Source: Candidatus Methanoperedens sp.
GTDB lineage: Archaea; Halobacteriota; Methanosarcinia; Methanosarcinales; Methanoperedenaceae
DNA: 32,000 nucleotides
Assembly (NCBI GenBank): GCA_041494705.1
Contig: JBGQBI010000006.1
Span: 30,001 to 62,000, forward strand
Direction: 5' to 3'
The notes beneath the pieces are model-generated. The model searched no databases. It was given only the letters and a program-made list of their open reading frames with translations, and was not told the DNA's origin. Positions 439-22,065 of the stretch are shown one piece after another. Positions within the stretch are counted from its first letter, which is position 1; the number at the start of each line of letters is the position of its first letter. Both the position numbers and the translations under genes were made by a program.

Positions 439-2573
439 CAGGATAACCCCCTTCTGTCTTTTTCTATCGAGATTCTTTTCTCAATCATCTTGTAAACGGT
501 ATCGGCAATCCTGTTGATCTCATGGAACGGTTTTTCTCTGAAGGATTCCCTGATAAAAGTATCGTTTATATTCGGGGGAGCTGTTTTTCCTGCCTGTTCC
601 TTGTTTTCCGGAATAATTTCTGTTTTTTGCACCACCGGTTTTTTAAGAATCAGTTCCAGAGAGGAGTTATAGGCAAGCTCGCCGGTTGAAACCTCCATTG
701 GTGTTTTCATGTCATTGGGAATACCGTATTTCAAATCGATACCATTCCGGGGAAAAACCAGGTCAGAAAATTGGTCTTCAGCCGGTTTCAATATTATCCC
801 TCCACGATGTGCGCGGATTGTATTTTTTCTTCCTGTCTTTTCATATTCCCTGATAATATTTTCATAGCGTGTATTCACGATAGTTCTGTTTTGCAAGACT
901 GATTCTGTGCCTTTTTCCGTCATGTCCCGAATACCTGCCGGAGTCCCATCCGCTTTTATGTGCGATGGCTCCCCGGATTGGTTTTCATTATTTGAAGGCT
1001 GTGCTGCAGGGACAAAATGATGAATGCCCCGGTTACTTTTTGAGAGTATGTTCCCGATATTGGGCGTTCTTTTTAAATTGCTAAAATTTACAGTATTTGA
1101 AGGATTCAAGACCATTTTTAAAGGCCGACTTATCAGATGCGAACCGGGGAGGTTTTTGTAGCTTGTTTCAGTTTCAGTCATGCTCCGGTATAAGGCATTT
1201 TTGGCCTCTGGATGACCGCTCGTTCTTGAAAGCGCCGGTTCTAAAAATCCCCCTTCTTTAATAAAATTCCTTAATCCCGATACAGGAGCCTGGATAATCC
1301 TGTGTTGTGAACCCGTCTCGATATCGGGAGGTCTTTTTAAATAACCCCTCATCCCGGCGTTTGAATATATGTTTGAGTATATCAAAGTCATATTCGCGGG
1401 CCGGGTTATTAAATGCGAGCCGGTGAATAAAAGGTTCCCTCCAGTCCCGCTTTCCTGAGGATTATTTTCATAGCTTATGTCCGCTGCCGCCCCGTTTTGC
1501 GAATATAATGGCTTTGCTGATACCGCATCTTTCCCGGCCGAATGGGAGTTCATTATTTTTGCGGGAAAAGAATGCCTTTCTTCGGGCTGCTTGCCAGATG
1601 CAAAAGGATAACCGGTTTGATAGCGCCGTGAACCGAAAATCCAGGCGTTCTGCAATCTTTGCAAATGGCTTATAGTCACATTCGCAGAATACGTGACCAT
1701 TCTAATTGGCCGGATAATCGAATATGAACGGGTGAGTAAAAAATTCTTTCCTGCATTGCCGGACTCCCCTGTATTATATTCATAATCTATATTCGATACT
1801 GTGATTTCCTTCTGGAAAGCATTTGTGCCTTCCGATGGTTTCACATTCATTATTGCGCGTGGCGATGCCGAAGAAACTTCTTCATGAGAAGCCTTTATTC
1901 CGGATGGTATAGGTTCGATTATTTTTTTATCGTCCTGAGCAGGGTAGGAAGAAGAAAGCTGCTTATGTGTGAATATCCGGTCACTCTGATTCGTTGCGGA
2001 ATTGTTGAAAAATGTTAAGCCATTTCGTTGCTGAGAATCATTTACCACGTCTCCGGACTGACCGATATGCAACCGGGGAATGGGTTTCCTCTTGAAATCC
2101 AAGCCTCGCCATGATTGCCCGAAAAAGCCGGAGACTTTCGGGGGTGCGAATGGTATATGCGGAAGAACACCGATGGCGGTTTTTTCCGATGTTTTCGTAG
2201 CCTGGCCGAGTCGTTTATCCGTCTGCGGTAAATACCCCTCGTTCTTACTATTTATAAAGTTGTATAGTTTCTGAAGATAGTAATTATCCGGTGTTTTTAT
2301 CAACTGCCTGATGAATTCAAAATAAAAGCCGAACTGGAATTTCAGGTAATTGCTAATTGATACTCTATGTGCGGAATTTTTATTCTTTGCCCCCGCACCT
2401 GATAATCTCAGGAATATCAGTGAAGGCAGCCTGCCTGATTTTCTAAAGATGCCGTATTTGCCTGCTATCCGCCTGGAAAAATTAAAACCGCCAAGTCCCG
2501 GAGCCCGGGCTGATAGTTCATTCTGCAAAAGACGTGATTTCATATCAAATTTCATGTTTTTAGATTTGTCCAT
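438..2573 (-). CDS. eCIS tape-measure-position protein (Afp14-like role inferred from position), 711 aa, with internal periodic repeats
   Basis: Long ORF with an ATG at 2573 preceded by GAGGA. It lies between the second tube paralog and the tube-initiator gene, which is where tail-length determinants sit in phage and eCIS operons. It is low in Cys and rich in Ser/Asn/Pro/Gly, with four quasi-repeats about 100 aa apart. I recognised no domain, so the function is positional inference. Confidence 0.55.
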   Translation of the reverse strand: MDKSKNMKFDMKSRLLQNELSARAPGLGGFNFSRRIAGKYGIFRKSGRLPSLIFLRLSGAGAKNKNSAHRVSISNYLKFQFGFYFEFIRQLIKTPDNYYLQKLYNFINSKNEGYLPQTDKRLGQATKTSEKTAIGVLPHIPFAPPKVSGFFGQSWRGLDFKRKPIPRLHIGQSGDVVNDSQQRNGLTFFNNSATNQSDRIFTHKQLSSSYPAQDDKKIIEPIPSGIKASHEEVSSASPRAIMNVKPSEGTNAFQKEITVSNIDYEYNTGESGNAGKNFLLTRSYSIIRPIRMVTYSANVTISHLQRLQNAWIFGSRRYQTGYPFASGKQPEERHSFPAKIMNSHSAGKDAVSAKPLYSQNGAAADISYENNPQESGTGGNLLFTGSHLITRPANMTLIYSNIYSNAGMRGYLKRPPDIETGSQHRIIQAPVSGLRNFIKEGGFLEPALSRTSGHPEAKNALYRSMTETETSYKNLPGSHLISRPLKMVLNPSNTVNFSNLKRTPNIGNILSKSNRGIHHFVPAAQPSNNENQSGEPSHIKADGTPAGIRDMTEKGTESVLQNRTIVNTRYENIIREYEKTGRKNTIRAHRGGIILKPAEDQFSDLVFPRNGIDLKYGIPNDMKTPMEVSTGELAYNSSLELILKKPVVQKTEIIPENKEQAGKTAPPNINDTFIRESFREKPFHEINRIADTVYKMIEKRISIEKDRRGLS
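1113..1790 (-). repeat. Intragenic protein-level repeats in the 711-aa protein, with a period of about 98-104 aa
   Basis: aa 262-293 IDYEYNTGESGNAGKNFLLTRSYSIIRPIRMV; aa 365-396 DISYENNPQESGTGGNLLFTGSHLITRPANMT; aa 469-487 ETSYKNLPGSHLISRPLKMV; and a weaker fourth copy at aa 567-597, NTRYENIIREYEKTGRKNTIRAHRGGIILKP (DNA ~783-875, outside the stated span). The shared core is [ST/R]Y-E/K-N ... G/R-S-H/Y-L/S-I-x-RP-x-x-M. Confidence 0.6.
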
Positions 2574-2595: not shown

Positions 2596-3021
2596 TTAGA
2601 CCACGCCATGGTGGGTCAGTACAATGGTTTCACTTGCAACAGTATTGCTTGTCGAATTGAATGAGGACACATCCCACTTTACGGGATACGCTTCAAAGAA
2701 ATACCAGTCCATTACCTGATTTCCTTCGTGGTCAAGAAGGTAAATAGCGCCGCTTTTCCGGCTGATTATCCCATTTATGACGTCTTTGTACCAGTTGTAC
2801 AGCTCCCAATCGGTAAGCCCGCGTTTTAAGGTAATATCAGTGTATTTCGTACCTCTGGGGAGCTTATACTCGAAATCATTGACTCCGCCTTCCCGTATGG
2901 AATCGACTTCTGTCTGGATGCTCAAGCCGGAAACGTCTGTAAATCCCCCTGCGATTATACCTTCAATTTCTACCAGAAACCGAAAGGCGCTATAAGGGTC
3001 TTCTCGTTTTCCAACAACCAT
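2596..3021 (-). CDS. eCIS inner tube protein paralog 2 (T4 gp19-like tail tube family; Afp5-like position)
   Basis: The N-terminus MVVGKREDPYSAFRFLVEIEGIIAGGFTDVSGL carries the DPyxxFrFxVEIdG tail-tube signature. The C-terminus reads ...SETIVLTHHGV. It is 141 aa, paralogous to 3604..4047, and has GGAG 8 nt upstream of the ATG. Confidence 0.85.
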   Translation of the reverse strand: MVVGKREDPYSAFRFLVEIEGIIAGGFTDVSGLSIQTEVDSIREGGVNDFEYKLPRGTKYTDITLKRGLTDWELYNWYKDVINGIISRKSGAIYLLDHEGNQVMDWYFFEAYPVKWDVSSFNSTSNTVASETIVLTHHGVV

Positions 3022-3029
3022 TGCCGCTC

Positions 3030-3212
3030 CTATACTTCGAACATATTCCTTGGTTCTTCTCCGTTAAGTTTCTCATTTATTTTACTTACCTCCTCGCACC
3101 ACTGCTGCCGCTCCCTATGCTCCATGTTCATTATCGTATCATGGTCCCAGTGAAAGTGGTAAGCCAGAAAGGCTACCTCCTCGTAGAGGCGCTCGTGGGG
3201 GTAGCCTGTTAT
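3030..3212 (-). CDS. Small conserved-looking eCIS ORF (60 codons) with no AUG/GUG/UUG start. It is either AUA-initiated/reinitiated or the -1 frameshift extension of the upstream gene.
   Basis: Absent from the ORF track. Hand translation of the -1 frame relative to 3209..3577 gives (I)TGYPHERLYEEVAFLAYHFHWDHDTIMNMEHRERQQWCEEVSKINEKLNGEEPRNMFEV*, with a TAG at 3032-3030. It exactly fills an otherwise 187-nt gap in a tightly packed operon and ends 8 nt before the next ATG. The frame is open from a TGA located 8 codons upstream of the G5 run. The first canonical start is the internal ATG at codon 28. Confidence 0.5.
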   Translation of the reverse strand: MTGYPHERLYEEVAFLAYHFHWDHDTIMNMEHRERQQWCEEVSKINEKLNGEEPRNMFEV

Positions 3213-3577
3213 TCCCCCAGGGATTGCACCTCTACATCGAATTTGTGCTCACACTTCGGACAGACCGTCTTGATCACATTCGAACCATTCTGGTTGATTC
3301 TCGTATACATCTCCTGTAGATATGCGAAATCCCCGGCAAAGAGTCCCTCAATAACCCTGGGGTTTACCATCTTCAAACTCCCGAGGCTCGTAACGACCCT
3401 GGAGAGAAGGATGACGGTCAAATACGCCGGGTTATTCTGCACCCTCGGGTCTTTCATGGGCAGTATCTCATCAGCAGCAGTGGCCAGCCTCATCTTGCCG
3501 TCCCTGTGAAGAGTTCCTGCCTCATCCACATATCCCATGGGCAAAGTAAAATCGTGTTCTGTCTGTAAAATTCCCAT
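3209..3577 (-). CDS. eCIS-associated protein at the tail-assembly-chaperone position, with a C-terminal zinc-ribbon-like CPKC...H motif
   Basis: 122 aa, MGILQTEHDFTLPMGYVDEAGTLHRDGKMRLATAADEI...VCPKCEHKFDVEVQSLGE. It lies between the tube gene and the tape-measure-position gene. The ATG at 3577 is preceded by GGAAG. The function is positional inference. Confidence 0.6.
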   Translation of the reverse strand: MGILQTEHDFTLPMGYVDEAGTLHRDGKMRLATAADEILPMKDPRVQNNPAYLTVILLSRVVTSLGSLKMVNPRVIEGLFAGDFAYLQEMYTRINQNGSNVIKTVCPKCEHKFDVEVQSLGE

Positions 3578-3603: not shown

Positions 3604-4047
3604 TTACTTCGTCCTCTTTATCCCTTCATGCACAAGCTCAAGTGTCTCTATGACCACTTCGTTCGCCTTTGCGCTAAAACCCGACGGGCTATACTTTGTG
3701 GGCCATGCCTCCATAATATCCCATCGCGCCTTATCATTTCCTTCCTCATCGATCAATATCAGGGAAATATTCTTTCTTGCCTTGGTTGCCCCGGCATCTT
3801 CAACAGACTTTCTCCACTGATAAATCTCCACCGAGTCCGTGAGCCCTTTCTTCAGGGTTATATTCCCGTACTTGGTGAGACCCGAAAGTTTTTTCTGGAA
3901 AGGTAAATCGGTTCCTTCCCTGTAATCAACCGAGTCTGTGGTAGTGTCCGGGATTGTGGCTTCTGCAAAACTTGCCGTTTGGATTCCATCTATCTCGACC
4001 CTGAACCTGAAATTCCTGTACGGATCGGTTCTTGCTCCTGTTGCCAT
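3604..4047 (-). CDS. eCIS inner tube protein paralog 1 (T4 gp19-like tail tube family; Afp1-like)
   Basis: MATGARTDPYRNFRFRVEIDGIQTASFAEATIPD...ITLKKGLTD...LELVHEGIKR. This is the classic tail-tube signature. It is 147 aa, lies immediately downstream of the sheath gene, and has an AAGGAGG RBS. Confidence 0.9.
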   Translation of the reverse strand: MATGARTDPYRNFRFRVEIDGIQTASFAEATIPDTTTDSVDYREGTDLPFQKKLSGLTKYGNITLKKGLTDSVEIYQWRKSVEDAGATKARKNISLILIDEEGNDKARWDIMEAWPTKYSPSGFSAKANEVVIETLELVHEGIKRTK

Positions 4048-4075: not shown

Positions 4076-5578
4076 TTATTTTGACAATGTCTTCTGCTGT
4101 ATCCTGATTATTACGAACTCTGCAGGTTTTACCGGCGCTACGCCGACCTCGACAATCAACTGCCCTGCATCTCTTACTTCCGGCGGATTATTCTCGGCAT
4201 CGACCTTTACATAGAATGCTTCTTCCGGTGTGCTTCCGAACAATGCGCCGTCTCTCCATACCCTCAGCAGAAATGCCGTTATATTCCTGATTACCGAGCC
4301 CCACAGCGCGGGCGAGTTCGGCTCAAATACGACCCACTGTGTGCCCTTGTCAATGGATTTCTCAAGGAAGAGGAACAGCCTTCTGATGTTAATGTATTTC
4401 CATTCCGCGTCGGCAGAGAGCGTTCTTGCTCCCCATACCACGATGCCTGACGATGGGAATGAACGGATGACATCTATCCCTATGGGATTTAATCCATCAT
4501 GTTCGCTCTTTGTTATGATCCTTTCAATACCGCTCACCGAATCAAGATAACCGTCAGAAATGCCTGCTGGCGCCTTATGGACTCCCCTTACCGAATCTGT
4601 GTGGGCATATGTTCCGGCGATTGCACCGGATGGAGGGACAGATTTTTTCTGTTTCGGGTTCAGAGGATCGCTTACAATAACCCATGGATAGTATAGAGCG
4701 CCAAATGAGGAATTAAAGGCATTTCCTGCATAAGTACCGGTTCCCTCTTTAAAGGCTTTAACTGCAGTCGGATCCAGGCTTATGGGCGGGTCGGCAATAA
4801 AGAAGCAGTCTTTCCTGTTCTGGCAGTAATTAAGTCCTTTTAAGATTGCATCTCTATTTCCGCTCATATCTGGCATAGCGACGATATTGATGTCGTCAAC
4901 CACATCGAACGCGTGAAGACCGTTCAGGGCTTTTCCATCGCCTTCAAAATCGGTTGCCGCAATACTCGTGAGACCATTATTGCCGGAAGTCAGGGTCACA
5001 GGCGTATCCTTCTTGGGAGCATTTGCTCCTTGTTTCACCACTTTGATATACGCCGATACATTATCTATTGCATCTTCAACAGTTCCAATTGTCAAATTGT
5101 CGTATGACTCTTTTTCATCACTGTTATATTTGACGACCAGCTTGAATCCATTTGTCAGTGTTGCATCAGATGCGGCTTTTGCCTCTACGGATATTTTATC
5201 CCCCCAGATACCCTCCGAAGCTGCCGTGACTTTTATCGAGGCGGCGGCAGCATCATCATTCATGGTTCCTGTTGAAGCTACAGCCGTCTTTGTCGTCGGG
5301 TCTGTTATAGTGGTGTAATGGCATGTCCTGACCACAAAACATCTTGTTCCTCCTTCCGAAAAGAACTGATATACAGAGTATGCAAGATACCCGTTGGCAA
5401 TATAGCCTCCGAATGTATTTATAAACTGTGTCCAGTTCGCTATCTGCTTTGCCTCTCCTATCGGTCCTCTCTCGGCAATCCCTACAAACGCCCCTGTCGA
5501 AGTGCCGACACCTTCTATCGGCTTTACCCCTGAGGATTTTTCTTCAACATATACCCCAGGTGATAGATATTCAGTCAT
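4076..5578 (-). CDS. eCIS / phage-tail-like contractile sheath protein
   Basis: The N-terminus MTEYLSPGVYVEEKSSGVKPIEGVGTSTGAFVGIAERGP is the canonical tail-sheath start. The C-terminal region reads ...GIDVIRSFPSSGIVVWGARTLS...WKYINIRRLFLFLEKSI...FEPN. It is 500 aa with an AGGAGG RBS. Confidence 0.95.
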   Translation of the reverse strand: MTEYLSPGVYVEEKSSGVKPIEGVGTSTGAFVGIAERGPIGEAKQIANWTQFINTFGGYIANGYLAYSVYQFFSEGGTRCFVVRTCHYTTITDPTTKTAVASTGTMNDDAAAASIKVTAASEGIWGDKISVEAKAASDATLTNGFKLVVKYNSDEKESYDNLTIGTVEDAIDNVSAYIKVVKQGANAPKKDTPVTLTSGNNGLTSIAATDFEGDGKALNGLHAFDVVDDINIVAMPDMSGNRDAILKGLNYCQNRKDCFFIADPPISLDPTAVKAFKEGTGTYAGNAFNSSFGALYYPWVIVSDPLNPKQKKSVPPSGAIAGTYAHTDSVRGVHKAPAGISDGYLDSVSGIERIITKSEHDGLNPIGIDVIRSFPSSGIVVWGARTLSADAEWKYINIRRLFLFLEKSIDKGTQWVVFEPNSPALWGSVIRNITAFLLRVWRDGALFGSTPEEAFYVKVDAENNPPEVRDAGQLIVEVGVAPVKPAEFVIIRIQQKTLSK

Positions 5579-5604: not shown

Positions 5605-5832
5605 TTATTTTCCTTTTCGTACATAGCTGGTCTTCTTCGATTCTTCCTTTTCAGCCGCTTCTTCCTTCTGGCTGAGGACAATCCCGCCTTTTGAAAGAAG
5701 GGTTTGCAGATGCGATGACGATAATTCCTCATCTGTAACATCCGCTGTATCTTTTGCTAAAAGGTCAATATTTTTACCACTATTCAAATTAATTATAATT
5801 CTCTGATTGAGTTTATTTCGTATTACTGGCAT
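5605..5832 (-). CDS. Small hypothetical protein (75 aa) upstream of the sheath gene
   Basis: The ORF-track entry runs 5605..5874. I prefer the ATG at 5832 (MPVIRNKLNQRIIINLNSGKNIDLLAKD...) because GGGAGG lies 5 nt upstream of it. It has an acidic/Lys-rich tail and no domain I recognise. Confidence 0.5.
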   Translation of the reverse strand: MPVIRNKLNQRIIINLNSGKNIDLLAKDTADVTDEELSSSHLQTLLSKGGIVLSQKEEAAEKEESKKTSYVRKGK

Positions 5833-5963
5833 AAACCTCCCGTCTAAAATCTTCAACTCGATACAAATTTTCAATAATTATTCTGCACTATCTTATTTTT
5901 GAAATACCTCCCCTGATTTTTCAGGTTCAGTTAGTTTTGAATCTAAAGTTTAACACCTCCATC

Positions 5964-6530
5964 CTACAGTCTGGTTAGCATTATCGGATCGATAATACGT
6001 GTCACTACACCCTTTTTTAACAGAACGGGAACATTCCCGATTATATATCCATTTTTATTAATAGTTAGTGTTATATTTATATCACTATCTATGGTAAACC
6101 GGATGAAAAAACCACCGTCATCTTCCGAAGTTGCGCTCTGTGTCATGGTTGTGACGGTTATGGCGGCATTGGCAATCGGCCTGTAGTCCTTCTCGGCAAT
6201 CCTTCCCAGAAGGACTGTAATCCCGCCGGGAAAGGGGTAATTGGATTTCGGGGTCAGCGCCAACTCTGCAAAAGGCTGTTTTGGGTCAATCGATGTGGTA
6301 TCAATGGTCAAATTCCCTGGTTTGTAAAAATGACCGCCGCCTGTAAGGACATGCTCCCCTTCGGGAAGGTCTATCAAAAGGAAATAGCCTGTGCCGTGTT
6401 GAATAATTTTTTTCTTTACACCTGTGGCTTTTAAGAACACGTCTCCGATAGTCTTTTTATCCGGGGAAAGGTCGTCTTTCAGCATTACTGCAAGACCCAG
6501 GACCGACTTTGTTCTTTCAAGAAAGGTCAT
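5964..6530 (-). CDS. Hypothetical protein with a carboxypeptidase-regulatory-like beta-sandwich segment
   Basis: 188 aa. The segment ...GRIAEKDYRPIANAAITVTTMTQSATSEDDGGFFIRF... resembles CarboxypepD_reg-type motifs, which is a recall-level match only. Its ATG overlaps the stop of the DUF4255 gene (ATGA at 6527-6530). Confidence 0.5.
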   Translation of the reverse strand: MTFLERTKSVLGLAVMLKDDLSPDKKTIGDVFLKATGVKKKIIQHGTGYFLLIDLPEGEHVLTGGGHFYKPGNLTIDTTSIDPKQPFAELALTPKSNYPFPGGITVLLGRIAEKDYRPIANAAITVTTMTQSATSEDDGGFFIRFTIDSDINITLTINKNGYIIGNVPVLLKKGVVTRIIDPIMLTRL

Positions 6531-7099
6531 GTACCGGCATCCATCCTGTATACGTCAATATCTCTTTCCATAACTCTTTTAATCACAGCGGGCGGCTTTC
6601 CGGACGGGACCCTTACAGGGCTCAGGATGTAGGAAGCCGAAAGCTTGAATGGCTTGCTGGGAAATCTCTCCCAGAGCTTGTTTATTTCATCAAACGTAAA
6701 GTTGGTGGGAACAACCCGTATCTCCTTATTTCCGGCTTCTATCAGCCCTCCTTTAAGCATATCTCCCTTGAGTACGGAATTATCATAGAACACCTGCATG
6801 AGCTTTTCAATGATTATCAGTTCGGTTTCTTTGACTTTCGCGTAAGGAGTAAAGATAAAGTGTAAATCAAGAATAAGCGGTGGATATCGCATCTTGTCGG
6901 TATCGATAGGCTCCGATGAGGTATTCTTTAAATAGCCATTCTCAATGATTTGATATAAGAAGACAGAAAGCATCGGATTTCCCGTCGGTTCGATCTCTGC
7001 GGGTGAATCAAAGACTATCGAATTGACAGGCTTGAGTTCTGTGATGTTGTCCTGGAGGAGCGCTTTTAAGGAGTCTCCGATATCTTTTAAAATCGCCAT
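6527..7099 (-). CDS. DUF4255-type eCIS tail terminator/cap protein (Afp16/Pvc16-like)
   Basis: MAILKDIGDSLKALLQDNITEL...SIVFDSP...MLSVFLYQIIENGYLKN...PPLILDLHFIFTPYA. This follows the Pvc16 N-terminal (DUF4255) pattern. It abuts the ATPase stop (TAAATG) and is 190 aa. Confidence 0.8.
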   Translation of the reverse strand: MAILKDIGDSLKALLQDNITELKPVNSIVFDSPAEIEPTGNPMLSVFLYQIIENGYLKNTSSEPIDTDKMRYPPLILDLHFIFTPYAKVKETELIIIEKLMQVFYDNSVLKGDMLKGGLIEAGNKEIRVVPTNFTFDEINKLWERFPSKPFKLSASYILSPVRVPSGKPPAVIKRVMERDIDVYRMDAGT

Positions 7100-13822: not shown

Positions 13823-15370
13823 ATGCATATGACTGTATCTTTAGGGCAGACATTATTAGTTCAAAACGCTGACGCCTTGAGAAAACTGGCTAACGACAAA
13901 TTAAAAATTGAAACTAAAGCGGAGTTAGGACAATTTATGACTCCTGCTCCAACCGCTACATTTATGGCTTCTTTATTTCCAACACCGAGAAGCAACAAAA
14001 TTTATTTGTTAGAGCCAGGCGCAGGAGTAGGAAGTTTGACTTCTGCATTTTTGGCACGTACAAAAGAATGGAATACTGTTGATGAAGTGAGAGTAGATGC
14101 TTATGAAGTTGATGAAACAATGCTTCGATACCTTGGGAAAAATCTTGAGTCATGCAAAGCTACAACCGAGCAAAGCAATCTACATTTTGTATTTAAAATA
14201 TTCAATGAAGATTTCATCTTAAGGGCTTCGGACAGAATATTGACTGCAGAAGGAATGGGGGCAGTAGAAGAGAAAAAATACACCCACTGTATTATGAATC
14301 CTCCTTATAAGAAAATTTCCAGTTCATCTCGTCACCGTAAGTCATTGCGTTCTGTCGGGATTGAAACCGTTAACCTATATTCTGGATTTGTAGCTTTATC
14401 TATATTGCTATTGGAAACTAATGGATATCTTGTTGCCATTATACCGCGTAGTTTTTGTAATGGACCATATTACAGACCTTTTCGAGAGCATATTTTAAAG
14501 TATTCCGCGGTTAGGCATATCCATTTGTTTGCCTCCAGAGACAAAGCATTCAAAGAAGATAATGTTTTACAGGAAAACGTGATAATCATGCTTCAAAAGG
14601 GCGGAGAACAAGGAGATGTTACTATCTCTACGTCAACAGATGACAGTTTTTCCGATCTAATTAATACCACGTATCCTTTTAGACAAATTGTACACCCGGA
14701 TGACAAGGGCTTATTCATTCATATTCCTTTATCGGAAAAGATTGATTTCATCAGTGAATCACAATCTTTTTGTTATTCTTTGAACGATATTGGAATTCAA
14801 GTTTCAACAGGACCAGTGGTTGACTTTCGCCTAAAAGAACATCTACAAGAAATGCCGCAGAAAAGTACAGTTCCATTACTTTATCCCTGTCACTTTTCAT
14901 CAATAAGAGCCATGTGGCCTTTAGAAAATGGTAAAAAACCTAATGCCATTGAGTATAACGATAAAACAAAGGGATGGTTTTTTCCCAATGGCTTCTATAC
15001 TGTCGTTCGCCGTTTCTCGTCAAAAGAGGAAAAACGAAGAATTGTCGCAAGTTTTGTTTGCCCTGACCAATTTAGGGAAACAGATTTTCTCGGATTTGAA
15101 AATCATCTGAATGTATTTCATAAGAATAAAAAAGGAATTTCTGAAACATTGGCTAAAGGACTGGCAGTATACCTCAATTCAACAGCTGTAGATGATAACT
15201 TCCGCAGATTTAGCGGACATACACAAGTAAATGCAACAGACCTAAGAATGATGAAGTATCCTAGCCGGAAAATATTAATTCGTCTCGGAGAATGGGTTAA
15301 ACAGCAAGACTATATAACTACAGATATGATTGATGAACAGTTGGAGATAATTGAGAATGGAAATAAATAA
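13823..15370 (+). CDS. Type II N6-adenine DNA methyltransferase (Eco57I/BsuBI-PstI-associated gamma-class MTase)
   Basis: AdoMet motif LLEPGAGVGSL and catalytic motif IMNPPYKKI. About 515 aa and paired with a BsuBI/PstI-family endonuclease. The ORF-track start at 13802 is a TTG; I prefer the ATG at 13823. Confidence 0.85.
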   Translation: MHMTVSLGQTLLVQNADALRKLANDKLKIETKAELGQFMTPAPTATFMASLFPTPRSNKIYLLEPGAGVGSLTSAFLARTKEWNTVDEVRVDAYEVDETMLRYLGKNLESCKATTEQSNLHFVFKIFNEDFILRASDRILTAEGMGAVEEKKYTHCIMNPPYKKISSSSRHRKSLRSVGIETVNLYSGFVALSILLLETNGYLVAIIPRSFCNGPYYRPFREHILKYSAVRHIHLFASRDKAFKEDNVLQENVIIMLQKGGEQGDVTISTSTDDSFSDLINTTYPFRQIVHPDDKGLFIHIPLSEKIDFISESQSFCYSLNDIGIQVSTGPVVDFRLKEHLQEMPQKSTVPLLYPCHFSSIRAMWPLENGKKPNAIEYNDKTKGWFFPNGFYTVVRRFSSKEEKRRIVASFVCPDQFRETDFLGFENHLNVFHKNKKGISETLAKGLAVYLNSTAVDDNFRRFSGHTQVNATDLRMMKYPSRKILIRLGEWVKQQDYITTDMIDEQLEIIENGNK

Positions 15371-16316
15371 CAACCACCCGTATATTAAAGATGCAATTAA
15401 TATTCTCAAGTCTTTAGGAATGCCTCGTGCACAACAAAACGAACGCTCCGCTCTTTGCCTACTTGCTTTATTGAATTTAACTCCTGATAAAACATGGGAA
15501 CAATCCGAAAATCCGCTTATTGGAATTACACCAATAATGGATTGGGCGAGGCAGTATTATAATAAGGATTATGCCCCAAACACCCGAGAAACCGTTAGGA
15601 GGCAATCAATGCATCAATTTGTTGATGCTGGAATTGCACTTTATAATCCGGACCAACCTGAGCGGTCTGTAAATAGTCCGAAAGCGGTATATCAAGTAGA
15701 ATTAAATGTTCTAAAACTACTTCGTACTTTTGGTTCTGATGAATGGCATGATAATTTAATTGCTTACTTAGCAGAACGTGAGACATTGTCTGCACAGTAT
15801 GCTAAAGAGCGAGAACAAAATCGCATTCCACTTCAAATTGCCCCTGGAAAAAAAATTACTCTGAGCCCCGGGGAGCATAGTGAATTAATAAGAGAAATCA
15901 TTGAACAATTTGGTCCACGATTCATCCCTGGAGGTATTATTGTTTATGTAGGTGATACTGAGGACAAATGGATATATTATGATGCCCCATTGTTAGCAAA
16001 ACTTGGAGTTGTTGTAGATGCTCATGGCAAGATGCCTGACGTAGTTTTATTTTGCGCAAAACGAAATTGGTTGATTTTGATAGAATCTGTTACAAGTCAT
16101 GGTCCTATTGATGGAAAACGACATTCAGAGCTATCAAGCTTATTTGCTGACTCTAAAGCCGGGCTTGTTTATGTTACCGCATTTCCAAATCGTTCATTCA
16201 TGGGGCGATACCTTAGTGAAATTACATGGGAAACAGAAGTCTGGGTTGCTGATTCACCGTCACATCTTATTCATTTTAATGGTGTCAGATTTTTAGGGCC
16301 ATATGATGAAAACTAA
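15357..16316 (+). CDS. BsuBI/PstI-family type II restriction endonuclease
   Basis: INILKSLGMPRAQQNERSALCLLALLNL...LIGITPIMDWARQYYNKDYAPNTRETVRRQSMHQFVDAGI..NPD.P.RSVNSP matches my recollection of the BsuBI/PstI REase N-terminal region. It is 319 aa, overlaps the MTase stop by 14 nt, and has GGAG 10 nt upstream of the ATG. Confidence 0.8.
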   Translation: MEINNNHPYIKDAINILKSLGMPRAQQNERSALCLLALLNLTPDKTWEQSENPLIGITPIMDWARQYYNKDYAPNTRETVRRQSMHQFVDAGIALYNPDQPERSVNSPKAVYQVELNVLKLLRTFGSDEWHDNLIAYLAERETLSAQYAKEREQNRIPLQIAPGKKITLSPGEHSELIREIIEQFGPRFIPGGIIVYVGDTEDKWIYYDAPLLAKLGVVVDAHGKMPDVVLFCAKRNWLILIESVTSHGPIDGKRHSELSSLFADSKAGLVYVTAFPNRSFMGRYLSEITWETEVWVADSPSHLIHFNGVRFLGPYDEN

Positions 16317-21039: not shown

Positions 21040-22065
21040 CTAAACAGATTTTTCAAGAACCGAGATACGTCTTGTCAGGCTTTTATGCACCCTCTGTATA
21101 TGGGTTTCGACAATTTTAAAACCCGCCTCTTCAGCGAACCCTTCAATCGGGCGTTCGGAAATAAAGACCGCGCGTTTTCCTCTTTTTAATACCCGGTGAA
21201 TCTCTTTTAACGAACCTGTAAGCAGGGCTTCAAGGGAAAAAGCTTTGATTGCAGCCGACCTGCCATAAGGAGGGTCGGTGACCACGGCGTCCACGCTCTC
21301 ATCGCGAATTGCCAGGCGGCATGCATCCTCAAACATCAGCGCATAACGGACATTGTAATGCAAAAGATTCATTTTTGCGCCAAGCAGCAATTTTCGCTGC
21401 ATATCTCCCCCGATGACCTTTATCCCGATGAGTCCGGCTTCGACGAGTATCCCACCTGTCCCGCAGAACGGGTCTAATAAATAATTCCCGGGTTTTGAAA
21501 TATTTACAAGCGCCCGCGCCACACGCGGCATCAGGACGCCGGGATAAAAAAAGGGTTTGTAATGGGGTTTTCTCGCCTCAAATGAACTCCTGTCAATCGA
21601 ACCGGAAATATTCCCGAAGATGCTCTTATCCTCTGTAAGCAGCACCCTGAACTGCATTTTGGGATTTTTAAGGTCGGCATGATAACCCCTGTCAAAAAAA
21701 ATCCCGCCGAGCCGCCGCTCCATCAGTTCTGTGTTTATACTGGAATATTCCCTGACGCGCCTGACCCTGATGCTGTATGTTCCTTCAAAGTCCGAAAGAT
21801 TCTTGTTCACCATATCCAGGATATCCCTTTCATCAGGTCCGTCAATGCCCACTACTTTAATGATATGATGGGTCATGGCAAGTCTTCCTGTAAGGATTCT
21901 TGTAATTTCATCGGCATTGCTTTTAAGGTCGATGATTAAACACCCATCAAGTGAGAGATGTATCTGGAAATCAGCTTTTAATGCTTCAAGACAGGCAAGT
22001 ACCTCTGATTTCGGAATGGTGTCGTGCTCGCCTGAAAGTTCAAATGCCAGTAACATAATACTCAA
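21040..22065 (-). CDS. THUMP-domain tRNA (guanine-N2)-methyltransferase (Trm-G10/Trm11-like)
   Basis: LDPFCGTGGILVEAG (AdoMet binding) and VVTDPPYGRSA (the DPPY catalytic motif), with an N-terminal THUMP-like region. Confidence 0.8.
   Translation of the reverse strand: MSIMLLAFELSGEHDTIPKSEVLACLEALKADFQIHLSLDGCLIIDLKSNADEITRILTGRLAMTHHIIKVVGIDGPDERDILDMVNKNLSDFEGTYSIRVRRVREYSSINTELMERRLGGIFFDRGYHADLKNPKMQFRVLLTEDKSIFGNISGSIDRSSFEARKPHYKPFFYPGVLMPRVARALVNISKPGNYLLDPFCGTGGILVEAGLIGIKVIGGDMQRKLLLGAKMNLLHYNVRYALMFEDACRLAIRDESVDAVVTDPPYGRSAAIKAFSLEALLTGSLKEIHRVLKRGKRAVFISERPIEGFAEEAGFKIVETHIQRVHKSLTRRISVLEKSV

Follow-up and report, generated by a model that had tools for sequence, protein, structure and literature searches.

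A probable programmed -1 ribosomal frameshift extending a tail assembly chaperone with DUF6760 in contractile injection system loci of Candidatus Methanoperedens and its archaeal and bacterial relatives

Background

The DNA analysed here (the window) is a stretch of 32,000 nucleotides (nt) from Candidatus Methanoperedens sp. (GenBank assembly GCA_041494705.1, contig JBGQBI010000006.1, positions 30,001 to 62,000 of the forward strand), the left 11.6 kb of which carry on the minus strand the operon of a contractile injection system (CIS). In this operon a 122-amino-acid (aa) open reading frame (ORF) resembling phage tail assembly chaperones is followed by an apparent gap of 187 nt (3208-3022), after which the second of two tube genes begins at 3021. 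What, then, does this gap encode, and how would it be translated? An earlier inspection of the letters alone (the sequence-only reading) had noticed that the -1 frame is open across the gap, and had considered two possibilities, namely (a) a small gene translated by reinitiation at an AUA codon that overlaps the stop codon of the chaperone ORF, or until recently from an ATG now changed to ATA, and (b) a -1 slip on a run of G residues, yielding a fusion of ~180 aa as in the G/GT and E/E' genes of phages. In this paper we present evidence that the gap is in all likelihood the 3' part of a recoded gene, in which a programmed -1 ribosomal frameshift of the gpG/gpGT type would give rise to a chaperone-DUF6760 fusion of ~182 aa.

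Frameshifting in the chaperone gene is reportedly a feature of gpG/gpGT of phage lambda and of the tailed double-stranded DNA phages, and as a kind the frameshifted tail assembly chaperone is well known. For CIS, on the other hand, no description of one was found, and the arrangement reported here seems to be new. The descriptions of lineage II CIS mention extra conserved genes of unknown function as well as the absence of a typical tape measure (PMC6899500, PMC10066040, PMC11566945); neither a chaperone nor a frameshift is mentioned in these three papers, nor in the surveys of extracellular CIS (eCIS), of phage-like protein-translocation structures (PLTS) and of CIS, nor in the studies of Streptomyces, anaerobic methanotrophic (ANME) archaea and haloarchaea that we examined. 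The openly searchable literature contained no paper naming DUF6760 and none tying CIS to a chaperone frameshift; subscription-only literature was outside this search, so that a prior description is possible.

Results

Read on the minus strand, the chaperone ORF (3577-3209) ends in CAA TCC CTG GGG GAA TAA, with its stop codon at 3211-3209. The -1 frame is open from just past a TGA at ~3251-3249 down to a TAG at 3032-3030, and translates as AQIRCRGAIPGGITGYPHERLYEEVAFLAYHFHWDHDTIMNMEHRERQQWCEEVSKINEKLNGEEPRNMFEV. It holds no ATG, GTG or TTG between the upstream TGA and an internal ATG at 3131-3129; the latter, the first canonical start of the frame, is codon 28 of 60, and initiation there would drop the GYP...EEVAF..YHFHW core of the peptide. 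The codon overlapping the TAA stop is ATA (3212-3210), so the window has no canonical start at this place and does not show the ATGA overlap of coupled genes. The second ORF overlaps the 3' end of the chaperone ORF in the -1 frame without a start of its own, as it does in 66 of the 75 relatives described below. Within the overlap lies a slippery sequence in the correct 0-frame register: the run of five G residues (G5; 3218-3214) belongs to the heptamer G_GGG_GAA (3218-3212), with X at 3218, GGG at 3217-3215 and GAA at 3214-3212. It is followed by a 5-nt spacer, UAACA (3211-3207), which holds the 0-frame stop, and by a 36-nt hairpin (3206-3171) that begins 5 nt past the heptamer and consists of GGCUACCCCCAC, a 12-nt loop and GAGGAGGUAGCC. 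All that the sequence-only reading had stated about the letters, i.e. the CTG-GGG-GAA-TAA junction, the G5 run, the 187-nt gap, the overlap of ATA and TAA and the internal ATG, is correct.

Its impression that the -1 frame reads like a real protein is borne out by homology. The 60-aa peptide matches the Pfam family PF20546 (DUF6760) over profile positions 5-55 of 89, with E=2.5e-19 and a score of 69.6 bits (gathering threshold 27), and a phmmer search with the same 60 aa returned 298 clusters at E<=1e-3 among 1.84 billion representative proteins, while neither NCBIfam nor PHROG gave a match for the DUF6760 segment; the ORFs next to it had no NCBIfam match either. The peptide is under purifying selection, and the -1 frame is genuine coding sequence, far beyond what would be expected of a chance open frame. 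PF20546 is described as a family of unknown function whose members are annotated as free-standing; the peptide studied here is a full-score member of it and, in contrast to that annotation, apparently forms a frameshift extension of the chaperone.

The upstream ORF seems, from its profile match, to be homologous to known tail assembly chaperones: the 122-aa protein matches PHROG 508 ('tail assembly chaperone') with E=9.8e-8, and its homologs bear the NCBI name 'phage tail assembly protein'. Neither Pfam nor NCBIfam matched the 122-aa protein, and no PDB sequence was matched by a profile of the fusion alignment. The sole sensible matches from Foldseek were a weak likeness to the HK97 chaperone 2ob9 and to YqbN 3klu (E 0.68, TM ~0.5 on the target, not significant), which may be taken as no more than a hint. 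The AlphaFold model of the fused homolog P0045, for which the alignment was shallow, has a moderate mean pLDDT of 70, and predicts an N-terminal domain of a beta-hairpin and helices (pLDDT 75-88), a low-confidence linker at residues 95-125, i.e. the junction region, and DUF6760 as three helices. There is also a subfamily of 248-260-aa proteins made of two tandem chaperone domains (P0001, P0002, P0014, P0031 and others; L006 3001-3753; L058), in which the same G_GGG_GAA and hairpin cassette and the -1-frame DUF6760 come after the second domain.

For the comparison, 80 loci were fetched from one-genome-per-species collections using an alignment (A1) of conceptual and natural fusions; the scan patterns were peptides inside the chaperone, so the junction itself was not selected for. 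The bacterial loci come from Paenibacillus and other Bacillota, Acidobacteriota, Cyanobacteriota, Nitrospirota, Chloroflexota, Verrucomicrobiota, Betaproteobacteria and Desulfobacterota, while Archaea contribute 13 genomes or more (Methanoperedens, Methanosarcina sp. DH2, Methanoregula, Methanotrichaceae, an ANME-2 cluster archaeon and Hydrothermarchaeota). Wherever tblastn found DUF6760 among the 80 loci, its frame is -1 with respect to that of the chaperone, the exceptions being L009 and L015, which have their own ATG, and the decayed L016; no DUF6760 match was found in L054. The two-ORF arrangement is thus conserved among divergent relatives in Bacteria as well as Archaea, and near-identical homologs occur in Candidatus Methanoperedens genomes.

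The cassette itself was analysed in 75 loci with 34-71% GC, position 0 being the G of the conserved GYP motif. The heptamer occupies -12..-6 in 71 of these loci and lies 3 nt further upstream in the other four, always in the X_XXY_YYZ 0-frame register; it reads GGGGGAA in 39 loci, GGGGGGG in 22, GGGGGGA in 11 and GGGGGAG in three, and the P-site Gly codon is GGG in 71/72 loci, against a background of 22%. The spacer measures 5 nt in 71/75 loci and 8 nt in 4/75. Two loci are particularly informative. In L056 (Verrucomicrobiae) the G run is replaced by G_GGA_AAA, a textbook slippery sequence, at the same position and in the same register, with the hairpin intact; and in L012 the frame can change nowhere but in the heptamer, whose seven nucleotides are all that lies between a -1-frame stop at -15 and the 0-frame stop at -5. 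Conservation of the G run together with the overlapping frame, which the sequence-only reading had proposed to check, is hence found across the 75 loci in a fixed register.

The heptamer being fixed, the 0-frame stop shifts: it is found at -5 (TAA in 18 loci, TAG in 15, TGA in 8), at -2 (26), at +10 (7) and at +31 (1). The -1-frame codon at -6, the place of the ATA in the window, is ATA in 29 loci, ATC in 10, GTC in 9, ATG in 6, GTT in 6, ATT in 5, GTA in 4, GTG in 3 and CTA in 3. Whether the second ORF normally has its own ATG, a question raised by the sequence-only reading, is thus answered in the negative, a canonical start being present at the overlap in only nine of the 75 loci. Eight of these nine starts track a TGA stop (GAA-TGA giving ATG, GGG-TGA giving GTG), and the ninth comes from GAA-TGG. 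One of these eight is the locus of Ca. M. nitroreducens, with ATG at the overlap, where the junction reads GGGGGAATGATC; since TAA and TGA versions alternate within Methanoperedens and the rest of the cassette is unchanged, this ATG is probably incidental and gives no evidence of a lost start.

The two arms of the stem coincide with the codons of GYP(H/L) and EEVA, the complementary sequences GGCUACCCCCUC and GAGGAGGUAGCC forming 11 pairs with one C.A mismatch. Folded alone, the hairpin of the window has an energy of -17.8 kcal/mol (z=-2.66). In the 75 distinct sequences 95.5% of cells are paired, and changes on both sides are seen in four stem pairs (G-C to C-G four times and G-C to A-U once; C-G to U-A three times and twice at two positions; G-C twice at the loop-closing pair). 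Cells with such double changes number 12, against 2.1 in shuffles (0/500), and all slid registers score far lower. As the region is highly conserved, the synonymous constraint is stronger evidence than this covariation. At the stem, GTA accounts for 71/72 Val codons (background in the same genes 15%), GGC for 64/66 Gly codons (38%), TAC for 72/75 Tyr codons (46%), CCC for 65/74 Pro codons (27%), GAG for 74/75 Glu codons (59%) and GCC for 63/75 Ala codons (32%). The third-position entropy is ~0 only at the heptamer and at both stem arms, whereas the codons of the loop, and those of Tyr, His, Phe, Glu and Arg residues elsewhere that are just as conserved, have 1.0-1.9 bits; since the 0 frame has already ended by the stem, dual coding is no explanation for this codon constraint. 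The median hairpin energy of 77 frameshift-type loci is -19.6 kcal/mol, versus -4.6 in the adjacent 39-nt segment and -4 to -10 in loci that lack the frameshift, and random synonymous recoding weakens the hairpin by ~11.7 kcal/mol, with 0.27% of the recodings being as stable as the natural sequence. A search of Rfam over 2900-3400 at a permissive threshold found no matching family.

Several loci serve as natural controls. DUF6760 has its own ATG or GTG in the haloarchaeal loci L009, L086 and Halogeometricum borinquense pHBOR03 (L097), in the Oscillospiraceae locus L015 and in the IMG/VR contig L088, and these five have neither the heptamer nor the stem complementarity, while the GYP...EEVA peptide is kept; in the stem region they use GTC or GTT and GCG codons, with energies between -4 and -11 kcal/mol. 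The chaperone and DUF6760 of L009 are parted by an in-frame TGA, after which comes GGVMTGYP, and some own-start lineages carry an N-terminal extension on DUF6760. The own-start lineages have lost, or never had, the frameshift cassette; the injection system of pHBOR03 has been studied experimentally (PMC11566945). Two further loci look decayed: heptamer and stem are degenerate in L082, and L016 contains an internal stop. Three Streptomycetaceae plasmid loci, for their part, keep G_GGG_GAA with the peptide TYA...EE(I/T)AY, and have at the same place a different stem, ACGUACGCG/CGCGUACGU, of -21 to -33 kcal/mol, so that the structure is kept while the sequence differs.

Chaperone and DUF6760 are fused in frame in the homologs P0026 and P0045, whose junction LGGV(I/V)GYP is that of the predicted product, and which have G8 where relatives have G7. 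The G8 runs lie in two independent metagenome loci (L001/L002 at ~4350-4358 and L090 at ~522-530) and make the chaperone-DUF6760 fusion obligate there; they could be real alleles, tract-length variation or assembly errors. In-frame fusions were also considered as direct proof of the product, for which purpose P0062 was discounted, its contig having further indels, and P0026 and P0045 were kept as weak support, given their G8.

As to its surroundings (Table 1), the locus appears to be a CIS (eCIS/PLTS, lineage II-like) and no prophage, as indicated by two tube genes, Pvc16_N and eCIS_core, and by the position of the sheath and AAA+ genes; no capsid, terminase or packaging gene was found among the window ORFs scanned, which were not all of its ORFs. 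The chaperone ORF comes directly after tube gene 1, and is followed by tube gene 2 and then by a candidate for a tape measure of 711 aa, so placed by position only. The latter has no match in Pfam, NCBIfam or PHROG, and the proteins at its position in relatives have 212 to 490 aa; internal repeats were suspected in it by eye, and self-BLASTP gave no confirmation of them. In the Streptomyces locus L091 a large hypothetical protein follows directly after DUF6760. The eCIS_core domain, found here at the head of the operon, has been linked to toxin cargo (PMC8213781).

Table 1. Positions of the operon genes in the window, and of DUF6760 as placed by RefSeq in three other genomes
Feature	Positions	Strand	Basis and remarks
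eCIS_core (DUF4157) protein, 552 aa	9933-11591	minus	domain at residues 223-292; head of operon
730-aa ORF, candidate AAA+ ATPase	7100-9292	minus	position only, as in relatives
Pvc16_N cap protein, 190 aa	6527-7099	minus	Pfam
CarboxypepD_reg protein, 188 aa	5964-6530	minus	Pfam
500-aa ORF, candidate sheath	4076-5578	minus	position; Phage_sheath_1 matches counterparts in relatives
Tube protein 1	3604-4047	minus	PF06841; directly upstream of chaperone ORF
Putative tail assembly chaperone ORF, 122 aa, ending ...SLGE and stop	3209-3577	minus	ORF list, PHROG 508
-1-frame DUF6760 segment (GG-ITGYP...NMFEV + TAG)	3030-3218	minus	translation, PF20546
Tube protein 2	2596-3021	minus	PF06841; directly downstream of DUF6760 segment
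711-aa protein, candidate tape-measure-like chaperone client	438-2573	minus	position only
Afp7-like gene, start only	runs off window start	minus	beyond 711-aa gene
DUF6760 in Nostoc sp. UHCC 0926 plasmid pn3 (L092)	1863-2033		RefSeq start ATA, WP_337961488.1
DUF6760 in Streptomyces L091	3366-3524		RefSeq start GTG overlapping stop
DUF6760 in Rhodococcus L095	684-827		RefSeq start internal codon

Some further features of the window were noted. The cap protein is split (5964-7099), the Pvc16_N and CarboxypepD_reg ORFs being separate with a 4-nt overlap; it is split in M. nitroreducens too, and the bacterial locus L001 has a single 290-aa protein with both domains. An 89-aa ORF between the sheath and CarboxypepD_reg genes (5605-5874, minus strand) has no Pfam or NCBIfam match. 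The rest of the window holds, at a distance of a few kb from the operon, a restriction-modification pair on the plus strand (13802-16316; an Eco57I-like methylase at 13802-15370 and a BsuBI/PstI-family endonuclease at 15351-16316), a further methyltransferase on the minus strand (21040-22065) and housekeeping genes, among them those for GAPDH and a flap endonuclease of archaeal type.

Exact matches to the cassette pattern number at least 120 in metagenome contigs, and there are none in the 2.9 million viral contigs of IMG/VR, where a protein search found only two loci; blastn and tblastn against 50,697 GenBank phages gave no match. The protein is encoded on 46 plasmid or chromid records, 24 of them from Streptomyces, and homologous chaperone and DUF6760 pairs occur in the CIS loci of Streptomyces, Nostoc and Halogeometricum. 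Among isolates, Methanosarcina sp. DH2, Paenibacillus spp. and Streptomyces plasmids have the arrangement. RefSeq annotates two separate genes with no mark of ribosomal slippage and with inconsistent DUF6760 starts, and gene callers place the DUF6760 N-termini at several positions, which gives free-standing proteins of 50-90 aa.

Discussion

Comparative sequence analysis demonstrates that both parts of the locus are coding, that their frame relationship is kept, and that heptamer, spacer and hairpin are conserved with synonymous constraint and compensatory changes; that slippage takes place, how efficient it is and how the two products divide their labour is what we infer from this arrangement. 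The -1 slip on the G run, with a fusion of ~180 aa like those of G/GT and E/E', is strongly supported by the comparison of the 75 loci. According to our proposal, most ribosomes would stop at the TAA at 3211-3209 and yield the 122-aa form, and a fraction would be paused by the hairpin (3206-3171) at the mRNA entrance. While the P site is occupied by GGG and the A site by GAA, tRNA-Gly would re-pair from GGG 3217-3215 to GGG 3218-3216, after which decoding would go on with GGA-AUA-ACA-GGC..., and the slipped ribosomes would read the -1 frame through DUF6760 to the TAG at 3032-3030. The long product, of 182 aa, would correspond to join(3577..3215, 3215..3033) of the minus strand. A P-site slip would create the junction ...EVQSLG-GITGYPHER..., with the predicted peptide FDVEVQSLGGITGYPHER, and a tandem slip the junction ...SLGEITGYP..., with the predicted peptide ...SLGEITGYPHER. 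In the G_GGG_GGG, G_GGG_GGA and G_GGA_AAA variants a canonical tandem slip would be possible, whereas for G_GGG_GAA a P-site slip is more likely than a tandem one, the re-pairing of the A-site tRNA being imperfect. By analogy with gpG/gpGT of lambda and E/E+E' of P2, the abundant short form might coat the tape-measure-like protein, and the rare long form might, via DUF6760, bring the coated complex to the tube or baseplate, so that the tube would polymerise to the correct length.

Several points weigh against such a frameshift. Programmed -1 frameshifting is, to our knowledge, little documented in Archaea. The G_GGG_GAA of the window is not a canonical X_XXY_YYZ, and after a tandem slip the A-site tRNA-Glu would face GGA, so that the event may be a P-site-only slip whose efficiency is hard to predict; with 5 nt the spacer, too, comes close to the lower limit of what is usual. 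Folding of the entire junction gives another structure, with an unremarkable z=-1.18, in which the G run is paired to the CCCCC of the 5' stem arm (3197-3218) in place of the hairpin. We take this fold to represent mRNA free of ribosomes, since at the time of the slip the heptamer is enclosed by the ribosome; the GGGGG:CCCCC pairing might tune the frameshift efficiency or the ratio of the products, or might be irrelevant on translated mRNA. In the close relative Ca. M. nitroreducens the ATG at the overlap may leave room for independent initiation, and the separate DUF6760 polypeptide in haloarchaea, the Oscillospiraceae genome and the IMG/VR contig means that a fusion is not universally required. 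Finally, the in-frame G8 fusions could be assembly errors, for which reason they lend weak support.

The explanation towards which the sequence-only reading leaned takes DUF6760 for a small gene in its own right, whose translation begins at the AUA by termination-reinitiation or coupled initiation, or which had an ordinary start until a recent ATG-to-ATA change. It can point to the ATGA that Ca. M. nitroreducens has exactly here, to the ATG or GTG that DUF6760 possesses in some lineages, to the free-standing 50-90-aa proteins of gene callers and RefSeq, and to the ATA start used by RefSeq in Nostoc pn3. However, ATG or GTG is found at the overlap in those 9/75 loci where a 0-frame TGA or TGG creates it, and most loci have ATA, ATC, GTC, GTT, ATT, GTA or CTA there; the 0-frame stop moves among -5, -2, +10 and +31 while the heptamer stays in place; the G-rich stretch abuts the AUA, too close for a Shine-Dalgarno sequence; and a stable hairpin only 5 nt after the putative start would impede initiation. 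An independent gene would also account neither for the fixed choice of GGG for Gly and of the codons in the stem arms, nor for the loss of heptamer and hairpin exactly where a real start exists. We therefore regard it as improbable, the conservation of heptamer, register, spacer and hairpin favouring the slip instead. The statement in the sequence-only reading that small free-standing proteins of this pattern occur in eCIS loci was right in that the peptide family is found there and in that databases list it as free-standing, with assorted starts; an ATG does, moreover, stand at this position in a close relative, Ca. M. nitroreducens.

A change of frame at the RNA or DNA level, in which RNA polymerase stutter adds a G, or the G tract varies in length within the population (phase variation), and in-frame fusion mRNAs result, fits the homopolymeric nature of the site (5-8 G bases) and the in-frame fusions of the two independent assemblies that have G8 versus the G7 of relatives. 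Yet half of the loci, the window included, have only G5, which is short for polymerase slippage or slipped-strand mispairing, and L056 has in the same register GGGAAAA, a classic ribosomal slip site. The fixed 0-frame register of the run matters only to a ribosome, and the conserved hairpin 5 nt downstream is a hallmark of ribosomal -1 frameshifting, for which a slippage tract would have no need; an origin at this level is thus hardly to be expected. Damage, be it an indel from sequencing or assembly or the decay of the gene to a pseudogene in this one genome, might be suspected in metagenome-derived sequence, which can contain homopolymer errors such as the homologous contig L089 clearly has. 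The same arrangement is present to the nucleotide in 75 loci of independent genomes, isolates among them, the cassette has its 120 or more exact matches in metagenome contigs, and DUF6760 is under purifying selection; these comparative data would leave such damage a very slight chance and appear effectively to refute it.

Compared with known systems, the proposed frameshift most resembles that of lambda gpG/gpGT: a tube gene directly precedes the gene, the second of the two overlapping ORFs lacks a start, slipping by -1 close to the 3' end of the first ORF gives (here by prediction) two products of different length that share their N-terminus, divergent sequences keep the arrangement, and the upstream ORF falls into a phage chaperone family. 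It differs in that the locus is not of a phage, as the searches of GenBank phages and of IMG/VR indicate, in its heptamer (G_GGG_GAA/GGG/GGA instead of G_GGA_AAG), in its strongly conserved downstream hairpin, which lambda G/GT is not known to need, in DUF6760 as the extension, and in a second tube gene standing between the chaperone and the tape-measure candidate. E/E+E' of P2, gp41/gp42 of Mu and the chaperones of R-type pyocins likewise belong to machines of a contractile sheath and a tube, and are frameshifted and encoded beside the tube gene, but no sequence similarity to them was detected via Pfam or NCBIfam; the slip sites differ, that of P2 being a T run, and all three systems have an adjacent recognisable tape-measure gene. 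With the signals of dnaX and of the IS911/IS3 family the cassette shares a slippery heptamer, a short spacer and a stable stem-loop, while its gene context is another one, no upstream Shine-Dalgarno stimulator is evident, and the A-site codon of its commonest variant (GAA) re-pairs non-canonically. The system as a whole is like the lineage II CIS (PLTS; Streptomyces, cyanobacterial and haloarchaeal) in its sheath, two tube genes, Pvc16_N, AAA+ ATPase and eCIS_core, the sheath and ATPase being assigned by position.

Conclusions

Beyond the window, the chances seem to us about even that a single nucleotide-level cassette (G_GGG_GNN, 5-nt spacer and GGCUACCCCCUC...GAGGAGGUAGCC hairpin) travels with lineage II CIS and is read by bacterial and archaeal ribosomes alike, and that its product is their missing gpGT-like assembly factor. 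If this is true, no cellular -1 recoding signal proposed for Archaea would be more widely conserved, and lineage II CIS, including those of Streptomyces and cyanobacteria that have been described without a typical tape measure, would set their tube length by a phage-like chaperone/tape-measure pathway. The frameshift by itself points to a systematic error in the annotation of hundreds of genomes, with DUF6760 given ATA, GTG or internal starts or left uncalled, and would assign DUF6760 a definite part, that of an extension added by frameshifting to a tail assembly chaperone. For the lineage II systems now being studied or engineered in Streptomyces, cyanobacteria and archaea, a phage-like route of tube assembly would be implied; codon optimisation or refactoring for heterologous expression would destroy heptamer and hairpin, as both consist of synonymous choices, and lead to a silent loss of the long product. 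The cassette would also make a compact -1 recoding signal available in archaea that are in culture, Methanosarcina sp. DH2 being one of them.

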